Shown: piece by piece, positions 13,160 to 63,920 of the stretch
Layout: the number at the start of each line of letters is the position of its first letter
Numbering within the stretch: position 1 is the stretch's first letter
Origin: a virus
Direction: 5' to 3' (one strand)
DNA length: 64,000 nt
IMG/VR virus record: IMGVR_UViG_3300043331_002222
Position numbers and translations under genes: made by a program
The notes under the pieces: model-generated
Told to the model about the DNA's origin: nothing
Databases searched by the model: none
What the model saw: only the letters and a program-made list of their open reading frames with translations

Positions 13160-13177
13160 AAGGAAGGAGCTGGGCCG

Positions 13178-13621: not shown

Positions 13622-13622
13622 C

Positions 13623-13892: not shown

Positions 13893-13898
13893 GACGAG

Positions 13899-19140: not shown

Positions 19141-19338
19141 GTGCCAGAGACCCACGTCTCCGCCTTCAAGGTGAAGATGCAGGACGGGCAGCCCTCGGTC
19201 TGCGTGTGCAAGGGCTGCGGTGACGTCTGGTCGCACAAGCAGACGCTGCTCGAGGCCGAGGGCAACGGCGTGGACCCCGACGAGGCTTACCACCAGTTCG
19301 TCGAGGAACACAGCCCGCACACGGAGCGTCCCGAGTGA
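19141..19338 (+). CDS. Small hypothetical protein
   Basis: CVCKGCG; coupled to neighbours. Confidence 0.5.
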   Translation: MPETHVSAFKVKMQDGQPSVCVCKGCGDVWSHKQTLLEAEGNGVDPDEAYHQFVEEHSPHTERPE

Positions 19339-21618: not shown

Positions 21619-21626
21619 AGTAAGGT
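21597..21626 (+). promoter_or_regulatory. Promoter TGGACA-N18-TAAGGT
   Basis: Direct match; GACGAGACG immediately before ATG 21650. Confidence 0.7.
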
Positions 21627-21649
21627 AACCACCTAGAAGGGACGAGACG

Positions 21650-46082: not shown

Positions 46083-47837
46083 CTAGACCAGCGCCACCCC
46101 GTCCTGGTTGGCCGCGCCGGTGGTACCGTCGACGGTGAAGTCGACCGTGACCACGCGGGAGAGGTGACCGATGCGCGCCACGAGGTGGCACTCTTCGGTC
46201 CACGCTGCGGTGTGGTCGTTGCGGGCGTTGAGCACGCTGTCTCGGACGACGCCGAGGTCCAGGTCCAGCCCGTTGCCGAGGACGAACGTGCCCGCGGCGT
46301 AGATGAGGAACTGGACGGCGGCCGGCCACGCGGTCCGGGCGGTGGCCTGGCCGGGGAAGTCGCCGCTGCCGACCTGCCAGTCGCTGACGAACTGGACCCT
46401 GACCAGCCGCTGGTCGAACCAGCTCATGATCTGAGCGTCGCTGACCGCGAGCAGGTCCTGCCCAGTCCGCTTGGCGATGTCGCTGCGGATGGCCTCCTTC
46501 GACCACCGCGGCAGGACGACCTCGAGGATGTCGTCGTCGCACATGCGGAACCGCTCCCGGTAGTCCGCGGCCTGCAGGCCGACGGCTCCGAGGAGCCCGG
46601 TGGTGATCGGGCTGTCGGTGCCGGTCACCGTGACGGCGGTCGACTGCGCCACCATGTCGGCGATGTGCCGCTGGTTCATCACGTGCCGGTGTGCGCTCAT
46701 CGTCAACCTGATGTGGTTCTGGATGAGCTCCGGGAACGCCGACTCGGTGAGGTTGCCGGCCGTCACGCAGATGCCGTGGCAGTCGAGGCGCTCCTCGTTG
46801 AAGGTCGGGCAGTCGGGCCGTGCGCACGGCTTGGTGGGACCAGCACCGCCGGTCGCAGCGGCGATGTCGTCGGTCTCGGTCCACAGCCACACGTCGTCGA
46901 GGACGTCGCTGATCGACGGGCTGGTCGGGAACCGGATGCCGCCCCGGGTCACGCCCACGGTCGGCACGTCGACGATGCCATCGTCGCAGGCGATGTTGAA
47001 GAAGTCGTAGATGATGGTGCTCGGTGCGCACCACCCGCCGGCCGCCACGAGGTGCTCGGGGTCGGCGCTGCGCTTGACGACGTCCCAGATCTGCTCGGGT
47101 GTGGCGTCTCGGTCGAGGACGATGTCGAACTCGCGCTTGACCGTCGCCACCGTCGCCTGGCCACTGGGGTTGCCCAGGGTCTTGGCCCGGCGGTGCACGG
47201 CGTCGGCGAGCTTCTCGAAGTCATCGAGCTGACGGCCCGCCGCGTAGCTGGGGACGTCCGGTGCGACCAGGACCATCGCGTCCTGTCGTCCACCCAGCGA
47301 CGGGTCCGGCGCCCGGCGCCGCACCTCGCTGAGCGGCACGTTCAGGCGCCGCCTGGTCGGGATGGACAGGGTGCCACCCTGGTCGCCGGCGGGCTGGGCC
47401 TCTGGGGCCAGCGTCACCGTGGTCTGGGTGGCTGCCTCGACCGGTTCGGCCGGGGGCTCCGCGGACTCCGTGGGCTCGGCCGGGGGTTCGCCACCCTCGC
47501 CGCCCTCGTCTCCCTCACTGCCCTCGGACTGCGCGGTGACCCCGACGCGGGTGGCCAGTTGGTCGAGCTCGGCCGCCATGTCCTGGCGCTCGCTCTCGCG
47601 GCGCTCCTTCTCGGCGGTGACCCGGTCCATCGCCAGCGCGATGGTGCGGGCCTCCTCGAGCGCCTCGCGGGTCAGGTCCCCGCTGCGCAGTGCGTTGAAC
47701 GACTCGAGCAGCGTGCTGCCGAGGGTCTCGAGCTCGTCGGCCGGCATCTGCGTGAGGTCCTCGGGGATCTCGACGCTCTCGCCTTCGACGTGCTCGTCGA
47801 ACGTGAAGATCCAGCTGAGACGCCGGCTCTCTTGCAT
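46083..47837 (-). CDS. Major capsid (hexamer) protein with N-terminal scaffold-like domain
   Basis: AAGGWCAPSTIIYD, VTRGGIRF, PELI, NDHTAAWTEE; AAGGGAG RBS before ATG 47837. Confidence 0.9.
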   Translation of the reverse strand: MQESRRLSWIFTFDEHVEGESVEIPEDLTQMPADELETLGSTLLESFNALRSGDLTREALEEARTIALAMDRVTAEKERRESERQDMAAELDQLATRVGVTAQSEGSEGDEGGEGGEPPAEPTESAEPPAEPVEAATQTTVTLAPEAQPAGDQGGTLSIPTRRRLNVPLSEVRRRAPDPSLGGRQDAMVLVAPDVPSYAAGRQLDDFEKLADAVHRRAKTLGNPSGQATVATVKREFDIVLDRDATPEQIWDVVKRSADPEHLVAAGGWCAPSTIIYDFFNIACDDGIVDVPTVGVTRGGIRFPTSPSISDVLDDVWLWTETDDIAAATGGAGPTKPCARPDCPTFNEERLDCHGICVTAGNLTESAFPELIQNHIRLTMSAHRHVMNQRHIADMVAQSTAVTVTGTDSPITTGLLGAVGLQAADYRERFRMCDDDILEVVLPRWSKEAIRSDIAKRTGQDLLAVSDAQIMSWFDQRLVRVQFVSDWQVGSGDFPGQATARTAWPAAVQFLIYAAGTFVLGNGLDLDLGVVRDSVLNARNDHTAAWTEECHLVARIGHLSRVVTVDFTVDGTTGAANQDGVALV

Positions 47838-47971
47838 GACGGGCTCCCTTGGTACTGAAGCGACCTGTTGGTTCTCCGTTGGAGGGGACCAGGTCTCGCT
47901 CCGTACCCTCTGGCCCTGGGCCGTCGGGCTGGCGGCTTCGGTGGCCGCCCGCGCCATGCGCGATCGCGGGC

Positions 47972-48002
47972 AGTGTACCACGAGGTGTGGGGGTGCTGTC
48001 CA
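47972..48002 (-). promoter_or_regulatory. Capsid-operon promoter TGGACA-N19-TACACT (extended -10 TGG)
   Basis: Family match with a longer spacer; divergent from the 48013 promoter. Confidence 0.55.
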
Positions 48003-49268: not shown

Positions 49269-49885
49269 GACTGTCCTCCCACGCCGGCCCCGAGGTGAAG
49301 CCGCCAGGTCCGGTGTGGCACGTGCACGAACTTCGCGTGAATGTCGAGCAGCCGGTTGAGCAGTGCCCAGTCCTCGCACTGCCGGTACCGCTCGTACTCC
49401 TCGCTGTCGTGACTGGGGTAGCCACCTACGGCCTCGAGCATCGAGCGCCGGACGAGGATGGTGGCCGGGATGAACGCGTGCTGCCGCATGTGTCGGGCCT
49501 GCTCGGGGCCGAACGCGACTCCGAGGGGACTGCGCAGCATGCCGTTGACCGGACACGCGAGCTTCTCGTCGCTCGAGATGTTGCCCATCTCGTCGTAGAG
49601 CTCGAACCACGGGTAGACGACGTCGGCCTGCTGGCTGTACGCGGCCATGACGCACCGGGCGAGGTGGTCCTCGTTGAACTCGTCATCGTCATCGAGGAAG
49701 GCTACAAACTCGCTCGTAGCCCGCCGCCACGCCTTGTTGCGGGTCGGCCCCGCGCCCTCGCCGTCTCGGTCCACCTGCACGATCGTCTCGTCTGGTGGCC
49801 AGAGCTGGACCTCGACCGAGGCAAGCGCCCGCTCGAGCAGCGCCTTGCGTGGCGGGATGGTCGCGATGCAGACGGAGACGCTCAC
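49247..49885 (-). CDS. GT-A (family 2) glycosyltransferase
   Basis: VCIATIPPR, EGAGPTRN, VAFLDDDD, EDWALL. Confidence 0.88.
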   Translation of the reverse strand: MSVSVCIATIPPRKALLERALASVEVQLWPPDETIVQVDRDGEGAGPTRNKAWRRATSEFVAFLDDDDEFNEDHLARCVMAAYSQQADVVYPWFELYDEMGNISSDEKLACPVNGMLRSPLGVAFGPEQARHMRQHAFIPATILVRRSMLEAVGGYPSHDSEEYERYRQCEDWALLNRLLDIHAKFVHVPHRTWRLHLGAGVGGQSWRAASR

Positions 49886-51063
49886 AGGACCGTCGGCACG
49901 GGGAGGGGAACGATCCACTTCTCGACCCCGAGGTCGCGCTTCAGGACATCCGCAGCGTAGTTCCAGGCGAGCAAGAGCACGGTCTGCTCGTGCCACGCCC
50001 CGGCGTACGGTGGCCGGATCTCGATTCCGGTGTTCGGGATGAAGCGGCCCTGCTTCGCCAGGGTCGTGTCCGTGACATGGCTGACCTCGGCATCGTCCAG
50101 TCCGCAGAAGTGCAGGAGAGTCGTGGCCTTCGCTGGCGCGCCGAACCCCATGACGTCGTGGTGGGACAACAGGTTGAGCAACCGGTCCCGGACCCGCTCG
50201 GCCCGGCCCTGGAAGCCCCGGTACGCGACCAGGTCCCGCAGCCACGCCTCTTGCGCGAGCAGGTAGTCCCGCTGGTGGCAGGACACCCGTCGCTTCACGG
50301 CCTGGACCCGGATACTGCCGCCCTGCCGGTCGGTCTGCTCCACGGCCGCGACGTACAGTCCGTGCTGCTCGAGCGCTCTGCTAAGGCTGGTCAGGCTGAA
50401 GAAGTTCCGGTGCTCGTGGTAGACGAGGTCGAATGCGTTGTTGAGCAGCAGGTCCGGGAGGTACTGGACCTCGACGTAGACAACCCCGTCGTCCGCCACG
50501 AGCAGGGCCGCGCCAGCGAGCACGTCACTAACGTCCTCGACGTGAGCGAGCACGTGGTTCAGCACCACCACGCCGGGTCGCTGCACGAACCCGTCGGCGA
50601 GCTCGATGGCGAGCGCTCGGCTGAACGGCTCGTCGACGACGTTCAGCCCCCACTCCTGTGCCCGCTTGACCGGGCCGGTCGCCGGGTCCACCCCGAGGGC
50701 TGGCCCGTTCCCGGTGAAGTGCCGAAGGAAGTCCCCGTCGTTGCAACCGACTTCGACCAGGCCCTGCTGGACTAGGGCACCGTGCCGTGACAGGACCCGC
50801 ATCGCGTACTGGCCGTGGTAGTTCGACAAGGGCAGGCTGGCCGAGCTGTAGAAGCTGTAGCCGGTCCCGAACAGCTCGCCGGCCGGGACGACCTCGAGCA
50901 GCTGGGCCAGCCAGCAGCCGGTGCACACCGCGACCTGTAGCGGGTAGAGCGGCTGGCGCTCGTTCGCAGTCTCGGTGTACGCGTCAGCGATGGGGCTGTA
51001 GCCCAAGTCGAGGAAGAGCTCGAGGCCGTTGTAGCCGCAGGCAGAGCAGGTGGTGCGGATCAC
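49882..51063 (-). CDS. NDP-sugar C-methyltransferase (TylCIII/TcaB9-type)
   Basis: N-terminal CSACG...C..C zinc site, LDLGYSPIAD, VEVGCNDG, NHVLAHV, YHEHRNFFS, GFGAPAKA, LLAWNY. Confidence 0.9.
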   Translation of the reverse strand: MIRTTCSACGYNGLELFLDLGYSPIADAYTETANERQPLYPLQVAVCTGCWLAQLLEVVPAGELFGTGYSFYSSASLPLSNYHGQYAMRVLSRHGALVQQGLVEVGCNDGDFLRHFTGNGPALGVDPATGPVKRAQEWGLNVVDEPFSRALAIELADGFVQRPGVVVLNHVLAHVEDVSDVLAGAALLVADDGVVYVEVQYLPDLLLNNAFDLVYHEHRNFFSLTSLSRALEQHGLYVAAVEQTDRQGGSIRVQAVKRRVSCHQRDYLLAQEAWLRDLVAYRGFQGRAERVRDRLLNLLSHHDVMGFGAPAKATTLLHFCGLDDAEVSHVTDTTLAKQGRFIPNTGIEIRPPYAGAWHEQTVLLLAWNYAADVLKRDLGVEKWIVPLPVPTVL

Positions 51064-51587
51064 GAGGTAAACCTACCAGCGTAAGCGCGCACCACGTACT
51101 GCCAGCGCTGGTTCGGGTCGACGATCGGCCAACCTCCCTCGATGCGGTCGAGGCCCAGGTCCCAGACCCGCGGCCAGCCCGCCTCGAGCAGGAGCTTCTC
51201 CACGAGCGGGCCGCTGGTCTCCCACTGGTGGACGTCCCCGGCCCACCGGCCCGCTCCGTGCTTGATCGCCTCAAGGGTACCCCAGCTCCAGTCGAATGTC
51301 CCATCAGCGATCATCTGCTCGGCGAGCGGGACGTCCGGTCCGACCGCGACGAGGACGCAGCCCTCGCTGTGCGCGCACCAGAGCAGCTGCTCGCAGAGCC
51401 CGAAGCAGTCGTCCCGGGTGAGGTGCTCGAACAGGTGCCCAGCGTAGACGTGAGTGACCGCGCTCCGCCAGTGCTCGGGGAGCGGCCCGGTCAGATCGAC
51501 CCGCTCGTCCACTCGGTGGGGCGTCTGGAAGTCGACGTTCACCCAACCGGGCTGGTAGCGGTCAGCGCAGCCGAGGTTCAGCCGCAC
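51060..51587 (-). CDS. Small class I SAM-dependent methyltransferase-like protein
   Basis: RLNLGCA...GWVNVD, YAGHLFEHL. Confidence 0.8.
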   Translation of the reverse strand: MRLNLGCADRYQPGWVNVDFQTPHRVDERVDLTGPLPEHWRSAVTHVYAGHLFEHLTRDDCFGLCEQLLWCAHSEGCVLVAVGPDVPLAEQMIADGTFDWSWGTLEAIKHGAGRWAGDVHQWETSGPLVEKLLLEAGWPRVWDLGLDRIEGGWPIVDPNQRWQYVVRAYAGRFTS

Positions 51588-52207
51588 GGTTCCTCGGCGT
51601 AGTACTCACCGGGCACGAACCGGAGCCGGGTGTGCTTGGTCGGCGGTCCCTCAACGGTGGGGAGCAGTCGCACGGGCAACACTCGGAAGTCGAAGCTGAC
51701 CCTGGTCCGCCCCGTGTCGTTGAGCTTGTTGCCGTGCAACCGCTTCGCAGCCGAGAACTCTGCGATCTGCCCTGGCCACGCGTTGACACACTGGAGCTCG
51801 CCGTCGTCGTCTTGCACCCACAGGCTGGCTGACCCGTGAGCCGCGGTCAGCGGCAGCCACATGGTCACCTCGTCGAGGGGGTGGTGGTACTGGGCGTCGG
51901 TGTGCAGCTCGCCGACCGCGGTGTTGCCCGGGAGCTGGACCCGGAACGTGGGCACCCGTTGGTAGTAGAACGGCTCCTCGACCCGCTCGGCTACGACCTC
52001 CCGCACGAACGCATCGTAGACCCGCTGCCACGTGTGGAAGTCGCCGTAGAACAGTGGGTGCCAGGGTGACTGCTGGTCGGTCTGCCAGGTCCGCTTGGGT
52101 AGGTCGGCTTCGAGTCCGTAGAGGCTGGTGACGCCGAGCGACAGCCGGACCAGCTCTGGGAACGGGTACTCCGTCAAGTCGTAGTCGAACAGCTCCCAGG
52201 GGGTCAC
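51578..52207 (-). CDS. StrG-like 2OG-Fe(II)/DSBH-fold protein
   Basis: FDYDLTEYPF, YQRVPTFRVQLPGN, HTD..H (HxD...H), LHGNKLNDTGRTRVSFDFR. Confidence 0.75.
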   Translation of the reverse strand: MTPWELFDYDLTEYPFPELVRLSLGVTSLYGLEADLPKRTWQTDQQSPWHPLFYGDFHTWQRVYDAFVREVVAERVEEPFYYQRVPTFRVQLPGNTAVGELHTDAQYHHPLDEVTMWLPLTAAHGSASLWVQDDDGELQCVNAWPGQIAEFSAAKRLHGNKLNDTGRTRVSFDFRVLPVRLLPTVEGPPTKHTRLRFVPGEYYAEEPCG

Positions 52208-52821
52208 GCCAGGCTCCACTTCTGACGGTACAGCTCGGCGGCCTCGCGGCACTTAGCGGCGCTCTCTTCGCTCGAGTACCCCTCGAGGTTGTGGTGCCAC
52301 GTGTCGACGTCCACGACCACTGCCCGCTTGCCGGCTGCCCGGACCTGCATGCCGATCTCGTCGTACCCGTGGAACCAGGTGAACCGCGGGTCGAAGCGCA
52401 GGTTCTGCACTAGCCAGGGTGACAGCACCATGATGCTGCCCTCGAGGAGGGTGACGTCGCCCTCTCGCTGACCGAAGTCGATCAGCCGCCGGTCGGTGCG
52501 CTGGTGACCGACCGGGCTGTGGTTCCACCAGTAGATCGACTCGCCACCACCACCCGCGACCCCGACCATAGCCACGTCTGGGTTCCGTAGTGGAGCGAGG
52601 AGCTTGGCTTCACCGTCCAGGTCGAGTAGCTCGAGGTCGTCGTGGACCAGCACGAGGGCCTCGAGGTCAGCGTGGTACTGGACCGTGTCCAGGACCTCGT
52701 TGTAGGCCCGCACGATCCCGGGGTACCCGTGCTTCGTGAACGTGGGCCGGCCCCCGGTCCACGGTGCGACGTACTGGTTGAACTTCTCCCAGCTCCCGAC
52801 GCAGCAGCCGTAGACGATCAC
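52204..52821 (-). CDS. StrF-like glycosyltransferase (Glyco_tranf_2_5-type)
   Basis: IVRAYN, LVHDDLE, VGVAGG, LLEG..M, FDPRF..FHGYD. Confidence 0.75.
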   Translation of the reverse strand: MIVYGCCVGSWEKFNQYVAPWTGGRPTFTKHGYPGIVRAYNEVLDTVQYHADLEALVLVHDDLELLDLDGEAKLLAPLRNPDVAMVGVAGGGGESIYWWNHSPVGHQRTDRRLIDFGQREGDVTLLEGSIMVLSPWLVQNLRFDPRFTWFHGYDEIGMQVRAAGKRAVVVDVDTWHHNLEGYSSEESAAKCREAAELYRQKWSLA

Positions 52822-53465
52822 CGGTGACCCCACTTGGCCTGGAACGTCCGGCCGTCCAGCCCGGCCTGGTGGGCCAGGTCCGGCCGCGCAGTGTACTCTC
52901 CGACCCGGAGGTTCGGTGCCGGTGCCCCGGCTACGATCACCGTGCCGCAGCGCTGGCGGGCCTGCCAGTCCACGTCCGTGTCGCAGTACCACCAGTGGAG
53001 TGACTCGTCAGCCCGGAGTCCCTGCTCGCCGGGGAGCATGAACGCCCACGGGCACATGCGATCTCCGCCGTTCGACAGCTCCCGGAGCAGGTACGGACTC
53101 GAGATGGCCTCGTAGCTGTGGGCCGAGGCCGCGCTAGCACCCCACTCTCGCAGCCCGGTTGCGACCCGGTCGTACCAGTCGGGTGGGACTACGACGTCGT
53201 CGCAGAGGAGCGCGACCTCCCACGTGCCCTTCTCGGGCTCGCTCGCCGAGATCGCTTCGAGCTGCGTGTTCCACAGTCGAGCGAGGTTGGGTGGCTGGTC
53301 CGGGACGTTCAGGATCACGACTCCGTCGGGCCACTCACCGTCGACCGGCGGATCACTGGCGTTGTCCACGACCGTGACCTGGTCAACCTGCGGAAGGACC
53401 GCAGCCACGCACTGCCTGAGCAGCTCGAGGCGGTTGTGCGTGAGCACGACCGCGTGCCTAGCCAC
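52818..53465 (-). CDS. GT-A (family 2) glycosyltransferase
   Basis: VVLTHNR, VVDNAS, LLCDDV, WWYCDTD. Confidence 0.85.
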   Translation of the reverse strand: MARHAVVLTHNRLELLRQCVAAVLPQVDQVTVVDNASDPPVDGEWPDGVVILNVPDQPPNLARLWNTQLEAISASEPEKGTWEVALLCDDVVVPPDWYDRVATGLREWGASAASAHSYEAISSPYLLRELSNGGDRMCPWAFMLPGEQGLRADESLHWWYCDTDVDWQARQRCGTVIVAGAPAPNLRVGEYTARPDLAHQAGLDGRTFQAKWGHR

Positions 53466-53468
53466 GGC

Positions 53469-53669
53469 TCAAGCGGGGTTGTGCGTCGTCAGCGTCCCGT
53501 TGACCTGACGCTTGAACACCACCGCGTCGATGTAGCGGTCGAACGTGGTCCTCGAGCCGTCTGGCGAGATCACCGTGAACTGGGGCGGTGTGTGCCGTCC
53601 GCTCGCGATCGCAGCCGCCACGTCCGGGCTGACCGTCTGCCGTGCCTTGCCGCAGCTTGTGCACCCCAT
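53469..53669 (-). CDS. Small head-module protein
   Basis: MGCTSCG N-terminus; coupled to the protease gene. Confidence 0.6.
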   Translation of the reverse strand: MGCTSCGKARQTVSPDVAAAIASGRHTPPQFTVISPDGSRTTFDRYIDAVVFKRQVNGTLTTHNPA

Positions 53670-55708
53670 CAGCGCTTGACCACCTTCCTGACCCGGAGGG
53701 TCCCGTGTCCATCTCCTCGCTTCTGCAGCTCGCGGTAGCGCTCCGCTCGCTCCTCGGTCACGACCCCAGCGGCGGTCAGCGCGAGCATGTCGTCGTTGTC
53801 CATCCGCGCCCGCATCCGCGGCACGGGGAACCCAGGGACGTTGACCGCGAGGATGGCGACGAGCTGCATCCGGCCACCGATTCGGCGCCAGTCACCGCTG
53901 AGCGAGGCACTGCGCAGCTCGCGGAGCCGTCGCTCGCTCAGCCCGGGTCGGACCGAGCCAGCGACCCAGATGCCGTACTGGTCCTCGCCGACCACGACGT
54001 CCGCCGCAGCGAACCCGGTCTGGTCGTAGTGGGCCGCTGCTGGCGCGGCTCCGTACCGCGCTGCGGCGTGACCGGTTCCCAACGTGACGTGACCGACTCC
54101 GACGAGCTTGCCCTCGCGGGTCTTCAGCTCACCCTTGAGGAAGTAGGAGTAGGTGGAACCGCGCGGCGGAGTGACGCAGCGGTCGGCGAACGTGGTGTGG
54201 CACGTGCCCCACAAGCACAGGTGACCGTAGGCCTTGCCACCGTCGTCGATCGTCCACGGAGTCGGCCCGGGCAGCTGGGGGTTCTTGATCCAGTTCCCCG
54301 GCGGGTAGAGCGGCGCGATCACCTCGTCGTTCCCACCGACCCGGACCGCCGAGGCGACCAGGACGTCCTCGAGGGCTGCGAGCTCGGGCGGGGTCTTGCC
54401 CCCGGCCCGGAGGTGTCCGGCCAGGTGGCTGTGGACCGCGGACCGGTCACCACCGGGGATCGACGAGCCGCCCCTGGCCCCGTTCAGCGCGGCGATCCCG
54501 GCCGAGCATGCGGTCATGTTGGCCGGCCCGCCCGGGCTGTTGTGGTGGGGGAACTTCAGGTCGGCCTTCACGACCTTGCCGTCTTCGACGGCGCCGTCGG
54601 CCATCCACGCGTACATGCCCCTCGCGGTCGCTACCGGCATCGGCGAGGGGAGGCGCGACTGGACCGAGCCCGCGTCCCAGCTACCCTCAGCGGTACCGGT
54701 CTTGTGACCAGAGATCGCTCCGAACGTCTCCACGGGGTGGGAGAGAGCTGCCACGACCACGTCCTCCTCTTCGAACTCCTCCACCGTACCGAGGTGGATG
54801 CGCGCCTCGACGAACGCCGGCAGGGCCACCATGGTCGCACCCCGGAGCCGGCCTCGGTGGAACACCACCTTGTCGGGCGGCGGGCCGAACAGCATCAGGA
54901 TGCCGTCCTCACCTTCGTCCGCGGTCTCCTCTGCGGGTGTGTCCGGGAACACGAGCTCGACGTCACTGTCCTTGACGCTGTCGACGTCGACGCTGATCCC
55001 ACCGGCGAGCTCGTTGCGCAGGTCTTCGGTGACCGGTGCGTCCCGCTTGATGACGCCCCACCCCCGGATGAGATTGCCGTCTCGCTCGATGCGCTGGATA
55101 CGCCCGACCACGATCGAGTGGCCGTGTCGCTCTTCGGACTGCTCCTGCCAGCTGAGCGGAACTACGACCTCCTCGAGGTCGGGCCACTCGAGGCTGCCCG
55201 GGGCGAACTCGCGCCCGTCCCCGGTCTCCGTCCCCTCAACGGCCAGGACCCCGTGCCACGGCTCGAGGGGACCCTCGAGGGCCATCTCCTCGTCGTTGTC
55301 CATGCACGTACCATCCGGCATGCGGTGCTGGTTGGGACCGCACTCCTCGCGCTCGTCGTCCTGGTAGGACTGCCCGCGCCGGTTGCGCCGAAGGCGCTTA
55401 TCCCGGTCCGTGCCCTGGTTGGGCCTCCCCCCGAACCCACCGTTATCGGTGGCGTTGGTGAAGCTGTTAGTGACGGCCATGGTTGCGACCTCCTCGGCCT
55501 CGGGCCGATTCACGACCAGTTGTACCAGTTCCTCCGCCAGCTCGGCCAGCCCCTGGTCCGCCTCCGAAGCGTACAGGGCCGCGAGCTGGTCCTCAGCGGA
55601 GCTCCGCGTGGCGTGGCAGAACTCGGCCTCGGTGTCACCCTTCTTCACGATGCCAAACGGCCGCGAGGCCGGACAACCGGGTGCGTTCGCTACGATGTCC
55701 CAGGGCAC
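53669..55708 (-). CDS. Capsid maturation protease / prohead protein
   Basis: WHGVLAVEGTETGDGR, HGHSIVVGRI, GISVDVD, GATMVALPAF; C-terminal GHLCLWGTCH...AGSVRP...LSGDWR. Confidence 0.78.
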   Translation of the reverse strand: MPWDIVANAPGCPASRPFGIVKKGDTEAEFCHATRSSAEDQLAALYASEADQGLAELAEELVQLVVNRPEAEEVATMAVTNSFTNATDNGGFGGRPNQGTDRDKRLRRNRRGQSYQDDEREECGPNQHRMPDGTCMDNDEEMALEGPLEPWHGVLAVEGTETGDGREFAPGSLEWPDLEEVVVPLSWQEQSEERHGHSIVVGRIQRIERDGNLIRGWGVIKRDAPVTEDLRNELAGGISVDVDSVKDSDVELVFPDTPAEETADEGEDGILMLFGPPPDKVVFHRGRLRGATMVALPAFVEARIHLGTVEEFEEEDVVVAALSHPVETFGAISGHKTGTAEGSWDAGSVQSRLPSPMPVATARGMYAWMADGAVEDGKVVKADLKFPHHNSPGGPANMTACSAGIAALNGARGGSSIPGGDRSAVHSHLAGHLRAGGKTPPELAALEDVLVASAVRVGGNDEVIAPLYPPGNWIKNPQLPGPTPWTIDDGGKAYGHLCLWGTCHTTFADRCVTPPRGSTYSYFLKGELKTREGKLVGVGHVTLGTGHAAARYGAAPAAAHYDQTGFAAADVVVGEDQYGIWVAGSVRPGLSERRLRELRSASLSGDWRRIGGRMQLVAILAVNVPGFPVPRMRARMDNDDMLALTAAGVVTEERAERYRELQKRGDGHGTLRVRKVVKR

Positions 55709-55711: not shown

Positions 55712-58700
55712 CTACCCCTGTCCTGTCAGGGGGTTGCCCGCGGTCAGACTGACCGGCGGCAGCCCACGGTCGACCGCGAAGTCGTACGCCAGGGCGAGTA
55801 CGTCGAGGATCGGAGCGTCGATCTGCTCCACCGTCATCTCGACGTCGCCCAGGTCCGAGTCCGCGAGGTCATGGCCGACGGTCGCCGCCCACCGGTGGTG
55901 ACCGTCGACGACGTAGTCGTCGTTCGACGTGAAGATGCTCCGGTTCGGGTCGAGCCCCCCTCGCGCCACGACGTCCTCGATAGCAGCGACCTTGGTCCCA
56001 TTGAGCTCCATCTGGGTCGCCTTGAGGTGGCTGGCAGGCCGCTTGACCCGCTTCATCTCGATCCCCATGCTGGCCAGGTGCTCCCGGAACGCCGGTGCCA
56101 GGTCCACCTCGCCACGGCTGTCGCGAGTCAGGTTCTGGTCGGCCCACGAGCCGGGCTCGGGCACTCCACCGAGCTGCGGCATCTGAGCCCGAGTCAGTCC
56201 CTTGTGCTCAGCGCAGAACAAGTTGGTGCCCTTGACCGACACGTCGCACAGGTCGTAGGTCTCGGCCTTCTCGCCCGCGTCCACGGCCGCTTGCGCCCGC
56301 TTGGCCAGCTCATCGAGCAGGGTCGCGACCCGGTCGGGCTGGTCTAGCTCGACCTTCTTGCCCTGCGCCAGTAGGTCGATGGCCTCCTGGACGTCACTGG
56401 TGTGAATCGGGTCCTGGTCACTGAGCATCGTCCGGGCGAGCCCGTCAGCCGAGAGGTTCTTGAACACCTCGGCCGAACCCTCCGAGCGCCGACCGCGCCC
56501 ACCAGCGTGACTCTGCTGGTCGTGCTTGCCACGCTGGTGAAAGGCCAGCCCGAACTCCTGAGCGAGGTCCTGGTCGTGAAACCCGCTCTTGTCGAAGCGC
56601 CGAGCGAACTCGTACCCGAGGTCGAGCTCGTCGATCAGGTACTCGATTCCCTCGACCGTGCCCTCGTCTACCTCGAGGTCGGTCCGCTGCTCTTCGCTCA
56701 GGACAAACGTCTCGAGGTCGTCGAGCTCGGCCTTGACGAGGTTGCCCTCGCTGTCCCACGGGTTCGGGATCAGGGTCTCGGGCAGCAGGACCGCCTTACC
56801 GGTTCCGGGGCTGCCCGGCGCACCAGCCCAGACCGCGGTGTTGACCCCGTGGTACTCCGAGGCCATGGCCTGCCGGCCCGCTCCCTCGTACATCGAGGAG
56901 TGCTCGAGGTAGGCCTGGTACTCTCCGTGCCGGTCGAAGCCACCGCCCACACCGGCGTGACCGAACACGTCATGCACGGCCCGGAACCGGTCGTACTCGG
57001 GCGTGGTCATCAGCGTGTGGTTGCCACCTAGTCCCGACTGGAGCGTGATGTGCCGGTTGTTGCGCAGGTCCGCGGCCTGGCTGGCCGCGTCCGGGTAGGG
57101 GTCCCCGGCGCTGAACGGGCTGAAGTCGACCGAGATCCCCATGCCGCCCTCGCTCTCGGGCCGGGTCATGAAGTCGAACATGCGCTCGTTCTGCCGTTTG
57201 AACTCGTCGTACGCGGCCTGGACCCGGGGATCGTCAGAGCCGTCGGCCATCCCCTCCCACTTCTCGGCCACGAGGTCGGCCTTGGCGAGCGGCGCTGGTA
57301 CCTCGCTGATGTCAACGTCGGGGTCGGGCAGTCCCTCCTGGTCCCGGTAGCGCTGAGCACCCTCGACGATGTAGTCGACCTCCGGATACTGCTCGCGCAC
57401 CTCAAACAGCAGCGCGTGCTTGACGTCCGGCGGTAGCCCGTTGACGAGGCGGCCGTGCCAGTCGAACAGGGCCTCGCCCTCCATACGGGGGTGAGCCTCG
57501 AGGTACGCGTCGACGCTGCCGACGCCCGGGATGCTGAGGTCGCTGCTGCGCCGCCGGCCACCCGCGTGTGACTGCTGATCGTGCTTCCCGGGCAGGTGGA
57601 ACGTGGAGGGTGCCGCTAGCCCGCCGGCGGCGGCGACCGCGACGAGCTGCTCCTGCTCGTCCGAGAAGACCCACAGGACTGTGCACCGGCAGTTGATGAC
57701 CTCTTCAGCCGGCCCGTCCGGGTCACCCGGGAACTTCAGCCGACCGTCACCGACCTCGAACGGGTCGAGCAGCCCGACCTGCTGGCCGTTGGCCCGCCGG
57801 TGCGTGTCACGGGTCCGACTGTCGTTGGTGGCCAGCCACTCCTTGCCAACGGGCGCCTCTTCCCCGAGCAGCTGGACCTGCGCGAACGCCCCGGCGTTGT
57901 ATGCGCCCACGACCTCGGTCCGCGCGATGGTCTGGGCGCGAACTCGGGTTGATGCGAGGACCTCGCGGACCCGCCGGGCAAGCTGGTCGATGTCCTCGCC
58001 AAGGCCGATCCCGTCGAGCAGCTGTAGGCGGGTGCGCCGCCACAGGTCGTCCCCGACACCGACGAGACGGTTCCGAGCCTGCATCAGATGTACCTCGGCG
58101 ATGGTGCTGGCGAGGTCGAAGCTGACCGGGAACTGCGAGATGTAGTCGATCAAGACCGTAAGGGTGTCCCGCGCACCGTCATGCATGAACACCCCGATCT
58201 GGGGCATCAGAGTCGAGATGAGCTCGACTCGCCAGGCCTGCTCGATCGCGGTCAGATCGTCGACGCTCACTGCAGCCGGGTCGACCGAGGCGAGGATCGA
58301 CTGTCCCAGCGGGAAGTCATAGGTGTTGTCACCGTGCGCGAAGCGCAGCCGGTCGAACATGATCGGCCCTGTCCGGTCGAGCGCCTCGCTGACGTGTCGG
58401 TCGGTCGGGTTGTAGGCCAAGGTGACGTGTGGCACCCAGGGCTGGTGCTGCTCGGGCAGCTGCCAGTCCTCGGCTCCGGCCGCGACCTGCGAGTCCTGTA
58501 GCGCCTTCATCGCCAGACGCCGGACCTCGGGCAGCCACGCACCGCCGATCCCGAGCACCAAGGCCGGGTCGTCACCGTTGGGGTTGAACCGGTTGACCGA
58601 GAACGCGTTGCCCTGGTACAGGGTCAGGTCCTCGGCCTGAGCGTCTAACGTGTCGCGCAGCTCGCTAACGAGCTCATCGGGCATCTCGGCGGCCTCACCG

Positions 58701-59032
58701 AGGAACCACAGGGTCAGGTGGAGCTCCTCGGACGGCTCGCCGCCCTCGAGCACGAGACGGTCGAGGTCCCGGTCCTCTGGGACCAGCGCGAGCATCGCAC
58801 CCGTGTGCTGCTGGCTCCCAGCAGCGGTCACGAACTCGCCGAGTGACCCGGTCCCGGCCCGGATGGCCCGGCGGAGCGCCCGGTCGACCAGGCCCTGGAA
58901 GCGCTCGACCCGTTGCTCGAGGTTGAGCTCGTCGGTGGCGTTGACCGCCGCCGCAGTCAGTTCCTCGGTACCGACCTGCCTGGCGAACATCTCTTCCTCG
59001 GTGAACTTCGGGTCAGGTTGAGACAGCAACAC
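55712..59032 (-). CDS. MuF head-morphogenesis polyprotein (2H phosphoesterase + MuF + HDxxGH domain + ParB-like domain)
   Basis: HLTL/HVTL pair; RAQTIARTE..KEWL..RTRDTH..FPGDP..INCRC; RAVHDVFGH; VDGHHRWAA. Confidence 0.85.
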   Translation of the reverse strand: MLLSQPDPKFTEEEMFARQVGTEELTAAAVNATDELNLEQRVERFQGLVDRALRRAIRAGTGSLGEFVTAAGSQQHTGAMLALVPEDRDLDRLVLEGGEPSEELHLTLWFLGEAAEMPDELVSELRDTLDAQAEDLTLYQGNAFSVNRFNPNGDDPALVLGIGGAWLPEVRRLAMKALQDSQVAAGAEDWQLPEQHQPWVPHVTLAYNPTDRHVSEALDRTGPIMFDRLRFAHGDNTYDFPLGQSILASVDPAAVSVDDLTAIEQAWRVELISTLMPQIGVFMHDGARDTLTVLIDYISQFPVSFDLASTIAEVHLMQARNRLVGVGDDLWRRTRLQLLDGIGLGEDIDQLARRVREVLASTRVRAQTIARTEVVGAYNAGAFAQVQLLGEEAPVGKEWLATNDSRTRDTHRRANGQQVGLLDPFEVGDGRLKFPGDPDGPAEEVINCRCTVLWVFSDEQEQLVAVAAAGGLAAPSTFHLPGKHDQQSHAGGRRRSSDLSIPGVGSVDAYLEAHPRMEGEALFDWHGRLVNGLPPDVKHALLFEVREQYPEVDYIVEGAQRYRDQEGLPDPDVDISEVPAPLAKADLVAEKWEGMADGSDDPRVQAAYDEFKRQNERMFDFMTRPESEGGMGISVDFSPFSAGDPYPDAASQAADLRNNRHITLQSGLGGNHTLMTTPEYDRFRAVHDVFGHAGVGGGFDRHGEYQAYLEHSSMYEGAGRQAMASEYHGVNTAVWAGAPGSPGTGKAVLLPETLIPNPWDSEGNLVKAELDDLETFVLSEEQRTDLEVDEGTVEGIEYLIDELDLGYEFARRFDKSGFHDQDLAQEFGLAFHQRGKHDQQSHAGGRGRRSEGSAEVFKNLSADGLARTMLSDQDPIHTSDVQEAIDLLAQGKKVELDQPDRVATLLDELAKRAQAAVDAGEKAETYDLCDVSVKGTNLFCAEHKGLTRAQMPQLGGVPEPGSWADQNLTRDSRGEVDLAPAFREHLASMGIEMKRVKRPASHLKATQMELNGTKVAAIEDVVARGGLDPNRSIFTSNDDYVVDGHHRWAATVGHDLADSDLGDVEMTVEQIDAPILDVLALAYDFAVDRGLPPVSLTAGNPLTGQG

Positions 59033-59033
59033 C

Positions 59034-59756
59034 CTAGTCCTCCATCATCCGGTTGAGCTCGTTGATGACGGCCTCGGACCGGGGGAAGTACGCCCGGTCG
59101 TTACCCTGGACCATGGCGACCGCCTCGGCGATGTCTTCCATGGGAGAAACGTCACCGTACGACGTGTCACTCACCCCACCGGGTGGCAGCCCCTCGGCCT
59201 CGAGGGCACGGTCGATGATCCCATCGGCAGCATCGTGGATCATGGACCGGACGACGACCACGTGGACCTGGTCACGCCGGAGCTGGGCTACGTCGAGCGT
59301 ACCGGACTCCTGCAGGGCCGCATATGTGGCAACGTGACCCAGCTCGTGGTCCACGATCCAACTGGTCTCGTGGAACGACAGGCTGTTCTCGTCGAGCACG
59401 GCGACTGTCATCTCCCCGGGCTTGGGTTTGAGTCCCCACTCCTCGGCCCCCCACGGGGGAATCGTGATGCCCTCGATCGAATCCGAACCCAGGGCGTCGA
59501 TGCCGACTTGCTGGTCCATCGCAACGAACTGCACGGTGCCCAGATCGTTCTCCGGAAAGCGCTCGTTGAACCGCTCTATGCCGGCCTCGATCTCGGCCCG
59601 CTGCTCAGACGAGAAGTCCATTCCACCACCGAGGGTGGGGCCAAACCTGGCCCGGGCCTGGCCGCCAGTCGTCCTGCGCCCCCTGCCGCCAGCGTGGGAC
59701 TGCTGGTCGTGGCGCCCCGGGAGGTGGAACGTCTCGTCGTGTACCAGCGCTGGCAC
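59034..59756 (-). CDS. Zincin-like protein with N-terminal FHLPGRHDQQSH motif
   Basis: HELGH plus SYG..EDIAEAV. Confidence 0.7.
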   Translation of the reverse strand: MPALVHDETFHLPGRHDQQSHAGGRGRRTTGGQARARFGPTLGGGMDFSSEQRAEIEAGIERFNERFPENDLGTVQFVAMDQQVGIDALGSDSIEGITIPPWGAEEWGLKPKPGEMTVAVLDENSLSFHETSWIVDHELGHVATYAALQESGTLDVAQLRRDQVHVVVVRSMIHDAADGIIDRALEAEGLPPGGVSDTSYGDVSPMEDIAEAVAMVQGNDRAYFPRSEAVINELNRMMED

Positions 59757-59757
59757 G

Positions 59758-61554
59758 TCAGCTCCTCACGGGCTGCGCCGCTCGGAGCGCGACGACGAGG
59801 GCCTCCCGGTCGTAGCCGAACCCCTTGGTCAGCAGCGTGCAGCAGTACGTGTCCAGGCACTGCACGGTGATGACCGGGTCGAGCCCGAGTTCGGCCGCGG
59901 TCTCGGGTAGCCGGTCCCAGGCCCGAGAGAGCAGCTCCTGGGTGTCCGTGACTCCACCGACGCAGCAGTGGGCCTGCTCGGGCGGGCAGTCGACCAGCGC
60001 CTCGGGCTGTGTGGAGCGGTACCGGCTTCTGATCCGGTTCCCAGCCCGCTCCAGGGCTCGGAGTACAAACCCCTCGAGGACCAGCACGGAAGCCGCCGGC
60101 GGTGTGCCCTCGGGAACCTCCCGGGGTGAGTTGCGGGTGAGCGGTGGCCCGTTGGTGTCGCTGCCCGCCTGATCGATGTCCTGACCAGGTAGCCCGGGCT
60201 GGGGACCCTGCCCGTTACCAGCCACTCCCGGTGCAGACGCGGGAGCGGGTGGCTCGATCCCCAGCCCGGCGAGCGCGGTCGGCGCGAGCATCGGGTTCGC
60301 GACCAGCTTCTTGTACGCCCAGTTCTCGATCTCGCTCTGGTCGGGCTTGTCGTGCTCGCTCATCCCGGTCTCACGCCGCAGAGCGTCCCCATCGACCTCG
60401 CCCCGGTCGTACAACAGGACCGCGTTGGCGGAGCGGTCCGGTCGGGTCTTCAGGTTGGCCGTGTTGGCCCAGATGATCAGCCCCTCGGTGTCCTCCCCCT
60501 GGGCCGAGAGGTACGGGTGAAGGTAGCCACCGGTGAGCGCGCCGGTCACGACCTCGAGGAGGGGCTCGGCGTGGATCTTGACCCCGGACTCCTCGAGCTG
60601 CCACGCGCCCCAGTGGCTCATGTCGCCCAGCCCGGTCAGGACCTCGGCCGGCACGTCCAACGCGATCGCACCCTGCCGTAGGGCCGAGTTGCGCAGGTCG
60701 ATGACGTGCTCCGAGAGCAGGGTCGCGAAGTCCAGGTGGTTGAACTTGTCGACCAGCTCGGCCGCGACCTCGACGGGGATCGGCACGAGCTGCGCCGCTG
60801 ACCCCGGAGTCTGGACCGCGGTCATCATCACGTCCATGACCTCGGTCACGAACGGGTGAACGCCCTCCGGCAGCTCCTTGCCCGCAGCGGTCGGGAACGA
60901 GGCCTCGGTGGGGAACACCAGGATGCCCGCCGAGGCGATCCGGCTGGCCAGAACCGCGTCGATGTACTGGCCGATCCGCCGGAGCTCTCGCAACGAGCTG
61001 AGCGCGGCTCGGGCTGGGCTGTCCGGCATCCAGTAGTAGCGCTCGTCGGGCCGCCAGACCTTGACCACGAGGGTGTCATCGGGGAGGACGACCCAGTTGC
61101 GCCCCACGTCCACCTGCAGCTCGTACACCGCGGGGTTGGTCGGAGTCGCGGGCTTCTTGAGCCGCAGGACGTCCTCGCTGTAGACCTTCCAGCTCTCTCC
61201 GTCACCCTGGTCGGTCGCGACGAGGTAACCGACGCCGGGCACTGTCAGGTACGTGCCCAGCGCCTTGAGCATCGCGGTCTGCCCGTCGAGCCCGCCGGCG
61301 AGGGCGTCCACGGCGTCGACCGCCGGCCCCGAGGTGAGCGGCTCGGGCTCGCTCCCGGGCCGGACCCGGGCGGCCTGCAACCTGGCCCGGCTGACCAGGT
61401 TCGAGATCCAGTTGGCCGCGAAACGGAGCGGACCCGAGTCGTGGTAGAACGCCCACGCCTCGTCCTGCCAGGCCTGCTTCTGACGCCGGGGATCGTCGAG
61501 GCGGCTGCCCTCGAGGACCTGCGCAGCCGCGGTCAGGCTACTTGGCTTGGTCAC
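59758..61554 (-). CDS. Portal protein
   Basis: WQDEAWAFY, LRFAANWISN..SRARL, SRIASAGIL, VPAEVLTG...HW; position after terminase. Confidence 0.88.
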   Translation of the reverse strand: MTKPSSLTAAAQVLEGSRLDDPRRQKQAWQDEAWAFYHDSGPLRFAANWISNLVSRARLQAARVRPGSEPEPLTSGPAVDAVDALAGGLDGQTAMLKALGTYLTVPGVGYLVATDQGDGESWKVYSEDVLRLKKPATPTNPAVYELQVDVGRNWVVLPDDTLVVKVWRPDERYYWMPDSPARAALSSLRELRRIGQYIDAVLASRIASAGILVFPTEASFPTAAGKELPEGVHPFVTEVMDVMMTAVQTPGSAAQLVPIPVEVAAELVDKFNHLDFATLLSEHVIDLRNSALRQGAIALDVPAEVLTGLGDMSHWGAWQLEESGVKIHAEPLLEVVTGALTGGYLHPYLSAQGEDTEGLIIWANTANLKTRPDRSANAVLLYDRGEVDGDALRRETGMSEHDKPDQSEIENWAYKKLVANPMLAPTALAGLGIEPPAPASAPGVAGNGQGPQPGLPGQDIDQAGSDTNGPPLTRNSPREVPEGTPPAASVLVLEGFVLRALERAGNRIRSRYRSTQPEALVDCPPEQAHCCVGGVTDTQELLSRAWDRLPETAAELGLDPVITVQCLDTYCCTLLTKGFGYDREALVVALRAAQPVRS

Positions 61555-61925: not shown

Positions 61926-63920
61926 CTAGTTGAAACGACCGCGGTTGCGAAGCAGCGCGCTGGCCAGCTCGTACTCCTCTTGAGCGGCCTGCTTCTCGGC
62001 CTCGGTGGGCTCGACCGGCCGGTAGATGGGGCCGACCAGCTGGTGTCCCGGAGTCCGGGGCCGGTCGTAACGGGTCTCGGTCAGCACCCGTGCCGGGACC
62101 GGCAGGCTGGCCGCCTTGTGCCGCTCCCAGTACGCCATCAGCAGGGCCTCGGCCCGGTCCGGGCTGGCTCCGAGGCGCTGGCTGAGCTCGCTCTTCGGCT
62201 CGATCTTGATCTTGCCGTTCGTGGGCAGGACCTCGTAGGTGGCCGCGCACAGCTCCCCGAGGACGTCCACGTCCACCTCGGCGAGGTCGACGAGCCGGAG
62301 GCGGCACAGCTCCCGGAAGTTCCAGTACAGCTCGGCCCGAGCGTTCAGGTACTCGTCGCTAGACGGCTTCTCGCTCGACTTGAACGCCACGACCTCGGCG
62401 TCGTGCAGCAGGGTGGACCGGTCTCGCACGGTGGGCTGGTGCCGGGTCGAGATCCGCTTGAGCTCGCTGACCATCCCGTGGCCGACCCCGGTCGCGTCCA
62501 CGACGACCCGGGTGACTCCCCACTCTCGCAGCTGCGTGGCGACCTGGGTGGCCAGGGCGACCGTGTCTCCCTCGTCAGCCCAGACTCGCTGCCGACCGGC
62601 CCGTGGTCCCCGCCGCTCCCGGAGGACGGTCCGGTCCGCGCCGTCCCCGGCGACGTCCAGCCCCGCGCAGACGGGCGTGTCCTCGGGCAGGTCCAGCGTC
62701 GTGCAAGCGACCGCCCAGCTGAACGGCACCGTGCCGTTGTCGGCGTCGGTCGGGAACACTCCCTCGACCTTGGCCTGGTAGATCGCGCTGCGCTCCCCCC
62801 AGACGGCCCGCCGGTCCTCGGCCCAGCGCCTCGAGATCAGACTGGCCGCGACGTGCTCACTGACCGGCTCCCCGGTGAAGTTCGGGGTGGCCGAGGCGCC
62901 GACGTGGATGACGTTCCACGAACCCGGGTCGGTGACGTCGGTCGAGACCGTGACCGCCCCGTCACCGGTGTCGGCGTACTCGTGGTGGGCGTGACCCAGC
63001 GGGCTGGCCCCGCAGACCTCGCCGAACGCGGTGTTCGCATCATCGGGGTTGCCGATCGCGAGGAAGCGGCTCTCCTCGTTCGAGACCAGGGTCGAGGCGG
63101 CGTCCCACAGGCTACGGGGGATGCCGCACGCCTCGTCGAACACCACGAGGACGTAGCGGGCGTGGATGCCCTGGAACGCGTCCCGCTTGTAGTCCGGGGG
63201 CTTGCGGCCCATCGCGACGAGCTCCGAGCCGATGTACCACTCGCTGGTGAGGTTGACCCGGCCCTGCAGTCCGCCCTTGGTGTGCAGGCGCCCGATCTCG
63301 CGCCAGAGGATGGCGCGGACCTGGCTGGCGGTCGGGGCGGTCGTGACCACGAAGGCCGTGCCCGGCGGGTGGACGTCGTTCCACCACAGGACGCACACCG
63401 CCGAGCCAAACGACTTGCCGATCGTGTGGCAGGTGTGGACCGCGGTGCGGGGGTGGTCCCGGACCGACTCGATGATCCCGCGCTGCCGGCTCCAGAGCTC
63501 GACTCCGAGCCGGTCCCGTGCCCAGGCGACCGGGTCCCGGAGGTAGAGGGAGTCCTTCGGGTCAGCCCGCTCGACGACGTTCCCGACGTTGAAGTGGTCG
63601 ACCGCGTGGGCAATCGGGTCCCCGGGGTCGGCCGCGAACCCGACCACCGGGTTCTCGACGAGGTCGTCCAGACCCCACCCCGAGGTGACCACGCTCAGTC
63701 CCACCGGAACGGCCAGCTGACCAGGGCGGGAGCCGTTGTCGGGTGCTGCCTTGTCCCGTCGGGTGTCCCTGGCAGGTGTCCTGAGGTCAGCGCTCAGGTC
63801 GGCGAACAGGTCGTCCACGACCGCCACCCTAGCACCCAGAGGGTGGACAACATCTTCCATCATGTGGTAAGCTGGCTCCATGGACGAGATGACGAAGATG
63901 AGCGGCCACCAGCGGCGCAA
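61926..63920 (-). CDS. terL: Terminase large subunit (true start probably GTG 63818)
   Basis: LWSRQ, Walker A variant CHTIGKS, Walker B VVFDEA, IGNPD, nuclease GLDVA..G.D, VVDATGVG, SPDRAEA. Confidence 0.92.
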   Translation of the reverse strand: MRRWWPLIFVISSMEPAYHMMEDVVHPLGARVAVVDDLFADLSADLRTPARDTRRDKAAPDNGSRPGQLAVPVGLSVVTSGWGLDDLVENPVVGFAADPGDPIAHAVDHFNVGNVVERADPKDSLYLRDPVAWARDRLGVELWSRQRGIIESVRDHPRTAVHTCHTIGKSFGSAVCVLWWNDVHPPGTAFVVTTAPTASQVRAILWREIGRLHTKGGLQGRVNLTSEWYIGSELVAMGRKPPDYKRDAFQGIHARYVLVVFDEACGIPRSLWDAASTLVSNEESRFLAIGNPDDANTAFGEVCGASPLGHAHHEYADTGDGAVTVSTDVTDPGSWNVIHVGASATPNFTGEPVSEHVAASLISRRWAEDRRAVWGERSAIYQAKVEGVFPTDADNGTVPFSWAVACTTLDLPEDTPVCAGLDVAGDGADRTVLRERRGPRAGRQRVWADEGDTVALATQVATQLREWGVTRVVVDATGVGHGMVSELKRISTRHQPTVRDRSTLLHDAEVVAFKSSEKPSSDEYLNARAELYWNFRELCRLRLVDLAEVDVDVLGELCAATYEVLPTNGKIKIEPKSELSQRLGASPDRAEALLMAYWERHKAASLPVPARVLTETRYDRPRTPGHQLVGPIYRPVEPTEAEKQAAQEEYELASALLRNRGRFN
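63844..63873 (+). promoter_or_regulatory. Rightward promoter TGGACA-N18-TAAGCT
   Basis: Family match; ATG 63880 lies 6 nt downstream. Confidence 0.7.

Follow-up and report, generated by a model that had tools for sequence, protein, structure and literature searches.

Phages are known to disarm their hosts with injected enzymes that travel in the phage head, and, to our knowledge, the choice and loading of the injected head proteins are unexplained outside T4 and, in part, P1. This question is raised by a 64,000-nucleotide stretch of viral DNA (IMG/VR virus record IMGVR_UViG_3300043331_002222; hereafter designated the window), in which a 15-residue peptide rich in His, FH(LP/QR)G(K/R)HDQQSHAGG (hereafter designated the header), stands in front of three unrelated modules: one in P0002, encoded by an open reading frame (ORF) between the portal and MuF genes, and two in the adjoining polyprotein P0001, behind its MuF head-morphogenesis domain. 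What does such a peptide do there? As described below, the header belongs to a family conserved at the peptide level that leads diverse accessory modules, and we propose, with about even confidence, that it is a per-module leader recognized in trans by the head-assembly or processing machinery, like the capsid-targeting sequence (CTS) of T4.

A six-frame scan of the window, together with its translations, revealed exactly three copies of the header, all on the minus strand (Table 1), where the first-pass annotation had placed them, save that the lower coordinate of the second copy is 56498, one base from the 56497 given there. The three copies have 13 of the 15 core residues in common, and each is followed by a stretch rich in Arg and Gly (RRRSS, RGRRSEG, and RGRRTTGG). 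No fourth or degenerate copy was detected in the window by a profile scan in six frames, in which the three copies scored 46.6–56.9 bits and the next best match 8.5. Many synonymous sites differ among the copies; the Ser codon is TCA, AGT, or TCC, just as had been read at first, and the Arg codon is CGG, CGC, or AGG. At the positions with a shared residue, the codon was identical in 52% of the cases in the window versus 61% expected from local codon usage, and the same-codon fraction among 14 copies in contig L001 was 53% versus 62.5% expected. Because the synonymous codons are scrambled, being no more alike than codon usage predicts, the repeat is far beyond chance and selection acts on the peptide, a claim of the first-pass annotation that the codon test upholds. 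Nothing points to recent gene conversion or to a signal at the DNA level in the header.

With a profile built from 12 copies, a search of 1.84 billion cluster representatives retrieved 557 proteins (E ≤ 1e-3), of which 116 reached E ≤ 1e-10; almost every protein retrieved contains 2–10 copies. Copy spacing and terminus counts were taken on the best 154 motif proteins, which contain 552 copies separated by a median gap of 225 aa. The logo, [K 68% / F 16%]-H-L-[P/A/Q]-G-[Q/K/R]-H-D-Q-x-[T/S]-H-G-[R/G]-[R/G]-G, has a sharp 15-residue core that starts abruptly on the N-terminal side and fades into Gly/Ser/Arg-rich sequence. Conservation is 87–100% at H(-5), H(0), H(+5), D(+1), and Q(+2), and the F-form found in the window is the minority form. 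An Arg-rich stretch after each copy, noted at first reading, is therefore a property of the window and not a general one, the family-wide tail being Gly/Arg/Ser-rich. Of the 154 proteins, 97 have their first copy no more than 60 aa from the N-terminus, none has its last copy that close to the C-terminus (0/154; smallest tail, 63 aa), and 144 start with Met. This N-terminal bias (97/154 versus 0/154) is more easily reconciled with a leader or tag than with a plain linker. True copies occur in about 20 IMG/VR contigs and in long ORFs of cultured Actinomycetota and of metagenome-assembled genomes of Pseudomonadota, Chloroflexota, and Myxococcota, the peptide being conserved across phyla and across genomes from 52% to 70% GC. 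A pattern scan of GTDB gave 120 loci, of which about 30 passed the profile, about half of those in long ORFs; the rest were chance matches. No family in Pfam or NCBIfam covers the header motif.

The 541 modules found behind the header fall into 244 sequence families, including 189 singletons, and most of the families carry no Pfam name. The two commonest are those of the window's ParB/Srx-like domain and of its HDVFGH domain (hereafter designated the middle domain), the latter being present in 46 of the 154 motif proteins. Listing the domains behind the motif, a search that the first-pass annotation had called for, thus yielded diverse domains of polyvalent proteins; the Pfam names among the modules are ART-PolyVal, ADPrib_exo_Tox, GNAT, HipA-like and PI3/4-like kinases, Zeta toxin, NUDIX, LPD1, and PARP, and four zincin Pfam families are also among them. 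The header accordingly stands before unrelated domains in head-gene proteins, as had been supposed, here after MuF and elsewhere after portal and MuF. Where a long leader precedes the first copy, MuF is the commonest (12/39). In the 50-kb phage contig L005, 16 copies run through the C-terminal extension of the portal protein and the next three head genes, and one gene of 317 aa consists of the header and a ParB/Srx domain 48% identical to that of the window. The L005 portal itself (3249–6218) is a Portal_Mu protein of 989 aa with two HDQ-headed modules in the extension, so that, unless these modules are cut off, the portal crown would bear cargo in 12 copies.

An AlphaFold2 (AF2) model of the middle domain with its flanking headers was built with 40 homologues. 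The domain was predicted with a predicted local distance difference test score (pLDDT) above 90 (model residues 31–350), whereas both internal header stretches remained below 50 (model residues 1–27 and 353–396), which, as far as the model goes, is typical of a linear motif located in a flexible linker. The middle domain is very conserved, with 48 columns invariant across 40 sequences. It matched no Pfam or NCBIfam family; against the PDB, Foldseek gave nothing at E ≤ 0.001 and a profile search of the PDB sequences nothing meaningful, the best score of a VIA-wide fold search was Z 3.7, and the AFDB clusters returned uncharacterized proteins only. This lack of fold matches does not demonstrate a new fold. 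The weak structural rows include the zincin-like abylysin (Z 3.0), jannalysin, CapP, PprI, and YbeY, the zincin resemblance being at Z ≤ 3.0, and HDVFGH lies at the end of a helix with DRHGE after it and Asp at the position of the catalytic Glu. Because of these zincin-like rows and the location of HDVFGH at a helix end, the middle domain is possibly a peptidase of the HExxxH type. Versions of it with about 30% identity occur in gp205 of Rhodococcus phage E3, which is annotated as a structural protein, and in 199 records of Mycobacterium phages, and LAGLIDADG inteins split the domain in three homologues (P0020, P0024, and P0052).

The second module of P0001 had been called ParB-like, and this holds at the level of the fold: its AF2 model (pLDDT 88.8) gave pNOB8 ParB-N (E 7e-3, probability 1.0), Srx, Noc, ParB-CTP, and free serine kinase as top Foldseek rows over about 100 residues, and its DGHHRWA was aligned by profile with the same motif in 1vk1 and 5x0j. 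The module has no Pfam match. The ParB-like alignment retained (A6) took the place of an earlier one (A5) that had been built on one single-linkage cluster and was too heterogeneous.

The third copy of the header is translated only if P0002 starts at GTG 59756, and a GAGGAG Shine–Dalgarno (SD) sequence is located 5 nt upstream of that GTG. The public gene call, P0003 (195 aa, from Met46), drops the header by omitting the part at 59617–59756 (minus strand), an example of how automated start calling may systematically hide N-terminal headers. Described at first as a stand-alone HELGH zincin, P0002 does contain the HELGH string, at about residue 136; its zincin identity rests on this HExxH string and on a lead from language-model (atlas) neighbours, which carry ATLF, M90, or Mx1 in a minority of members only, with no match in Pfam at E ≤ 1 or in NCBIfam. 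The module is hence a candidate zincin-like peptidase. A tblastn and word search with P0002 found no phage match, only its own cluster, and a local tblastn found a P0002-like module in L001 (32% identity, E 1e-7). Both junctions of the gene, with portal (59754–59760) and with MuF (59030–59036, minus strand), have the arrangement SD-like GGAG, stop codon, one base, and GTG, in place of which close relatives have a 4-nt overlap of portal and MuF; the shared geometry may be the scar of a cassette insertion.

Middle-domain homologues in other polyproteins (50–60% identical) sit behind different short repeats, among them EFGDxxGHPF(H/R)GNQW, F(N/D)PxQPRDxxGR(W/F), HPRGxDGxF, FANPWHDEIGRF, and PEGxRRYxxPIG. 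Variants seen at the same module borders in P0005–P0059 (for example P0040, P0032, P0011, P0014, and P0023) are EFGDxxGHPFRGNQW, (F/Y)xPxQPRDxxGR(F/W), and FDESKHPRDxxGRF, and further ones are HPRGHDGxF, FANPWHDEIGRFAPKG, and RHVRTPEGxRRYxxPIG. Several of these flavours share the skeleton aromatic-x-x-(H/Q)-(P/D)-R/D-x-x-G-R-aromatic followed by Gly-rich sequence, and together with HDQ they may form one superfamily. Usually a protein holds one flavour, only 8 of 153 HDQ proteins being mixed. On a quick maximum-likelihood tree of the middle domain, from which seven near-identical 642-aa rows were left out, the flavour changes 16 times versus a minimum of 6 and 27.6 when shuffled and is thus partly clustered; the HDQ flavour needs at least three changes. 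By sequence comparison, a module can thus be parted from its header, and several flavours, of which HDQ is one, are interchangeable.

Three relatives of the window with the same gene order and a protease 53–62% identical have a MuF protein that ends right after the domain, and they lack both an intervening ORF after the portal gene and headers of all flavours. Among 112 protease homologues, MuF-2H-protease fusions included, only one has any header. These results show that the header belongs to add-on cargo cassettes and not to the assembly machinery. Neither the interchangeable flavours nor the accessory nature of the modules had been noticed at first reading.

The disordered linkers, the peptide-level conservation, the uniform flavour per protein, the swaps of module and flavour, and the N-terminal bias together suggest a per-module leader read in trans. 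The header, located in a flexible linker on the N-terminal side of each accessory cargo module, would be read by a component of head assembly or maturation and would mark the following module for loading into the procapsid and, in polyproteins, for separation from the MuF or portal carrier. The cargo of the window would then comprise one free protein encoded after the portal (zincin-like) and two modules strung on the MuF C-terminus (HDVFGH and ParB/Srx). Position and gene context are the grounds on which packaging, cleavage, and ejection with the DNA are inferred, and reading in trans is inferred as well. The separation step is purely conjectural; it was added to the model because a tag between every pair of fused modules is redundant for loading alone. 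To unite targeting and processing in one leader, on the pattern of T4, is the most economical model.

That redundancy is one of several points weighing against a per-module leader read in trans. A profile scan detected no header, even degenerate, in the major head protein, the protease-like protein, or the portal of the window, and so the same site in a capsid or scaffold protein matured by the protease, by which a prohead protease site would be known, was not found; if the prohead protease cuts the header, it uses another site in the capsid protein or leaves that protein uncut. When the window head proteins were compared by tblastn with contigs L001–L006 (20–29 kb per contig), no shared partner was found, the comparison with L005 included. 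The motif proteins of L001 and L002 lie more than 10 kb from any recognizable head gene, and the head location of header proteins is thus not universal at the level of gene order. Finally, 50,697 records of cultured phages gave no true header match by tblastn with two short filtered queries, which is a weak test. A complex prediction for the 679-aa protease-like protein (A7) and the header (A1) scored 0.00, which is evidence neither way.

The remote motif proteins of L001 are encoded by two adjacent giant genes (10001–23811; 1858 and 2745 aa) with 5 and 9 strict HDQ-type copies, or 6 and 10 by the HMM count including HNQ variants. They sit among small early-type genes near an ArdC-N gene, away from the head genes, which indicates that header-tagged cargo is not always encoded in the head operon.

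The main rival explanation, which we hold to be improbable yet the most serious, is that the header is a cleavage site only, cut by a metallopeptidase module travelling with the polyprotein and having no targeting role. The HELGH module of P0002 and the HDVFGH domain, as an HExxxH-like variant, are the candidate cutters, and each well-sampled locus offers one (P0002 and the middle domain in the window, the P0002-like module in L001, and the middle domain in L002 and L005). Zincin-like metallopeptidases have been proposed to process polyvalent proteins (Iyer et al. 2017, PMC5512222), and the four zincin Pfam families among the modules, the weak zincin-like rows of the middle domain, and the partial clustering of flavour on its tree (16 changes versus 27.6 shuffled) would all agree with such a site. 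However, a pure cut site is expected at either end of split genes, which the counts of 97 and 0 among 154 contradict, and the middle domain is present in 46 of these proteins only. The zincin calls are themselves weak (P0002 without Pfam match at E ≤ 1; middle domain with best Z 3.7 and Asp for the catalytic Glu), AF2 leaves the adjacent motif undocked on the middle domain, and shared ancestry can explain the clustering on the tree.

Less probable still is a structural or metal-binding hinge, in which the His triad and Asp would bind Zn or Ni, with neither partner protein nor cleavage, and would compact the chain in the capsid or allow its unfolding for passage through the tail. The three His residues five apart with D(+1) and Q(+2), conserved at 87–100%, would suit such a role, as would the low-confidence linkers with Gly-rich sequence after the motif and the lack of a conserved partner between the window and L005. 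The other flavours (GHPFRGNQW, NQPRDxxGRW, and PEGxRRYxxPIG), however, occupy the same positions without the His triad, and a hinge leaves unexplained both the uniform flavour within a protein and the occurrence of extreme N-terminal copies on free-standing proteins with zero C-terminal copies.

We give little credence to a footprint of cassette exchange, with the header DNA serving as a homology patch for module swaps and the peptide nearly idle. Header and module are indeed present or absent as a unit between close relatives, the same module occurs behind different headers, and a hand count gives about 80% identity (e.g., 36/45 bases) for the core DNA of the copies in the window. Nevertheless, the likeness at synonymous sites does not exceed that predicted from codon usage, the six-fold degenerate Ser and Arg codons differ between copies, and the peptide persists from 52% to 70% GC and across phyla. 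These observations point to a function at the protein level; DNA-level recombination as the main explanation was rejected by the codon test, and module exchange is probably a by-product. Very unlikely, lastly, is a fusion of portal and P0002 by a +1 shift at the portal stop codon, which would make all three copies internal linkers: the common geometry of the two junctions and the direct fusion of the L005 portal to motif-headed modules are compatible with it, but this geometry is also what plain translational coupling looks like, the SD being well spaced and the start codon a GTG. Re-pairing of the P-site codon AGC would be poor in the +1 frame, and family members carry the header near the N-terminus (97/154) and start with Met (144/154).

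Table 1 Features of the window around the header copies
Feature	Coordinates	Strand	Remarks
Large terminase	61926–63920	minus	Start of head operon, followed by small membrane protein gene
Portal protein	59758–61554	minus	phrog_776, E 9e-134
P0002	59034–59756	minus	240-aa ORF between portal and MuF genes; header and ~195-aa HELGH module
Header copy 3, FHLPGRHDQQSHAGG	59685–59729	minus	P0002 aa 10–24; N-terminus of ORF between portal and MuF
P0001	55712–59032	minus	1106-aa polyprotein: 2H phosphoesterase, MuF, header, HDVFGH module, header, ParB/Srx module
2H (LigT-like) phosphoesterase domain	58283–58825	minus	P0001 ~aa 70–250; PF13563, phrog_2659
MuF / SPP1 gp7 head-morphogenesis domain	57638–58105	minus	P0001 ~aa 310–465; PF04233, phrog_2468, E 1e-41
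Header copy 1, FHLPGKHDQQSHAGG	57557–57601	minus	P0001 aa 478–492; ~12 aa past MuF domain end, precedes HDVFGH module
Cargo module 1 (HDVFGH middle domain)	56591–57550	minus	P0001 ~aa 495–814, ~320 aa; invariant RAVHDxFGH, GFDRHGE, EYHGxN
Header copy 2, FHQRGKHDQQSHAGG	56498–56542	minus	P0001 aa 831–845; precedes ParB/Srx-like module
Cargo module 2 (ParB/sulfiredoxin fold)	55715–56497	minus	P0001 aa 846–1106, ~260 aa; invariant DGHHRW
Prohead-protease-like protein	53669–55708	minus	679 aa, header-free; phrog_18402, phrog_859
Major head protein	46083–47981	minus	Header-free; phrog_777, E 1e-137

The domain assignments in the N-terminal part of P0001 lie above the family cut-offs for PF13563 (aa 102–221; E 8.8e-9, 36 bits versus 27) and PF04233 (aa 337–452; E 3.7e-17, 63.5 bits versus 29.6), and slightly below for TIGR01641 (38.3 versus 39.65). 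A distant relative of the 679-aa protease-like protein carries PF04586, the HK97 prohead protease. The 679-aa protein itself apparently comprises two halves resembling S78, in each of which Ser/His and a (V/L)xxPAF / NVPGFP strand are conserved, and between them an H-H-containing middle region; Pfam detects none of these parts. In many relatives the protease-like protein is fused behind MuF-2H. A block of unnamed genes separates the protease-like gene from that of the major head protein, and the window ORFs in it (~49880–53470, minus strand) have no PHROG match. The corresponding block of relatives (L159, 12113–15459; L160, 11211–17045) contains several methyltransferases and family-2 glycosyltransferases, which suggests virion glycosylation in these phages. 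Just upstream of the packaging genes, the relatives also have a TROVE (Ro60-like) gene (L159, 1–1184, with VWA; L160, 1–1434).

Several known systems invite comparison. T4 brings its internal proteins and Alt into the prohead by means of the CTS, which the prohead protease gp21 then removes, and the cargo is injected with the DNA. The prohead proteases of giant phages cut at three-residue S/A/G-X-E sites shared with the capsid protein. Encapsulin cargo-loading peptides are short linear peptides that dock diverse enzymes inside an HK97-fold shell, usually C-terminal, not rich in His, and not repeated between domains; the header is likewise a short linear peptide on diverse enzymes, but is His-rich, repeated, and on the N-terminal side of its cargo. 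Like the CTS of IPI–III and Alt (reviewed in PMC3012670 and PMC9958956), the header forms a short leader N-terminal to unrelated cargo, as borne out by the counts of 97/154 versus 0/154 and the 244 families. The two have no sequence resemblance, however; the CTS occurs once per protein at the N-terminus, whereas the header recurs within polyproteins as well, shows far stronger conservation, extends over several bacterial phyla, and is a putative signal for targeting and cleavage. Processing of ejection proteins in giant phages (phiKZ gp175 and SPN3US gp245; PMC7411985, PMC10052503) similarly acts, ahead of DNA packaging, on a short site recurring in many internal head proteins, from which the HDQ header differs in having 15 residues and in being absent from the capsid, portal, and protease of the window phage.

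The proteins that carry the header resemble phage-type polyvalent proteins, a known class (Iyer, Burroughs, Anand, de Souza & Aravind 2017, J Bacteriol, PMC5512222) of multi-domain effector chains beside or fused to MuF and portal, which are predicted to be packaged and injected. Indeed, P0001 combines the 2H, MuF, HDVFGH, and ParB/Srx domains in one chain, and P0001 and P0002 are encoded among the genes for terminase, portal, protease, and major head protein. The repertoire is also held in common (2H, DdrB-like ParB, ART, GNAT, NUDIX, Zeta toxin, LPD, and zincin metallopeptidases, of which the window offers candidates). The difference is that the modules treated here are set off by a 15-residue motif, which stands at the head of free-standing proteins too; term searches of the text of PMC5512222 found no conserved header or linker peptide. 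A large polyvalent protein has been reported as abundant in phi24B virions (bioRxiv 10.64898/2026.04.10.717836), direct support for the occurrence of polyvalent proteins in the particle, with which the structural annotation of E3 gp205 agrees. The MuF polymorphic toxins of temperate phages (Jamet et al. 2017, BMC Biol, PMC5576092) are similar in having an N-terminal MuF domain, variable C-terminal effectors, and a place in the head operon, but contain one C-terminal domain where there are several header-led modules here, and the text of that paper has none of the terms linker, motif, cleav-, boundary, or junction. Literature searches returned nothing on the header motif. Collectively, the protein class is known, as polyvalent proteins and MuF toxins, and the header motif is undescribed in PMC5512222 and PMC5576092.

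The choice of cargo can be approached concretely, and by mutation, through a strongly conserved 15-residue header that precedes unrelated modules by the hundred in phages and prophages of Actinomycetota, Pseudomonadota, Chloroflexota, and Myxococcota. Its testability is good because there are cultured hosts with motif-bearing prophage regions, among them Streptosporangium longisporum JCM 3106, Actinoplanes sp. CA-054009, Micromonospora sp. CPCC 205371, and Sphaerisporangium album. It also provides a cheap finder of candidates for injected effectors, these being whatever follows the header, with the warning from P0002 that gene callers can clip it. Should the header prove enough for loading, it would help to turn phage heads into engineered carriers of protein. 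More tentatively, HDQ and its sister flavours (GHPFRGNQW, NQPRDxxGRW/F, HPRGxDGxF, and PEGxRRYxxPIG) may constitute a portable address system of tailed phages for capsid loading, release from the carrier, and delivery into the next host, each phage lineage reading its own flavour. Were this true, it would amount to an unrecognized cargo-sorting code across several bacterial phyla and a ready tool for loading phage heads.

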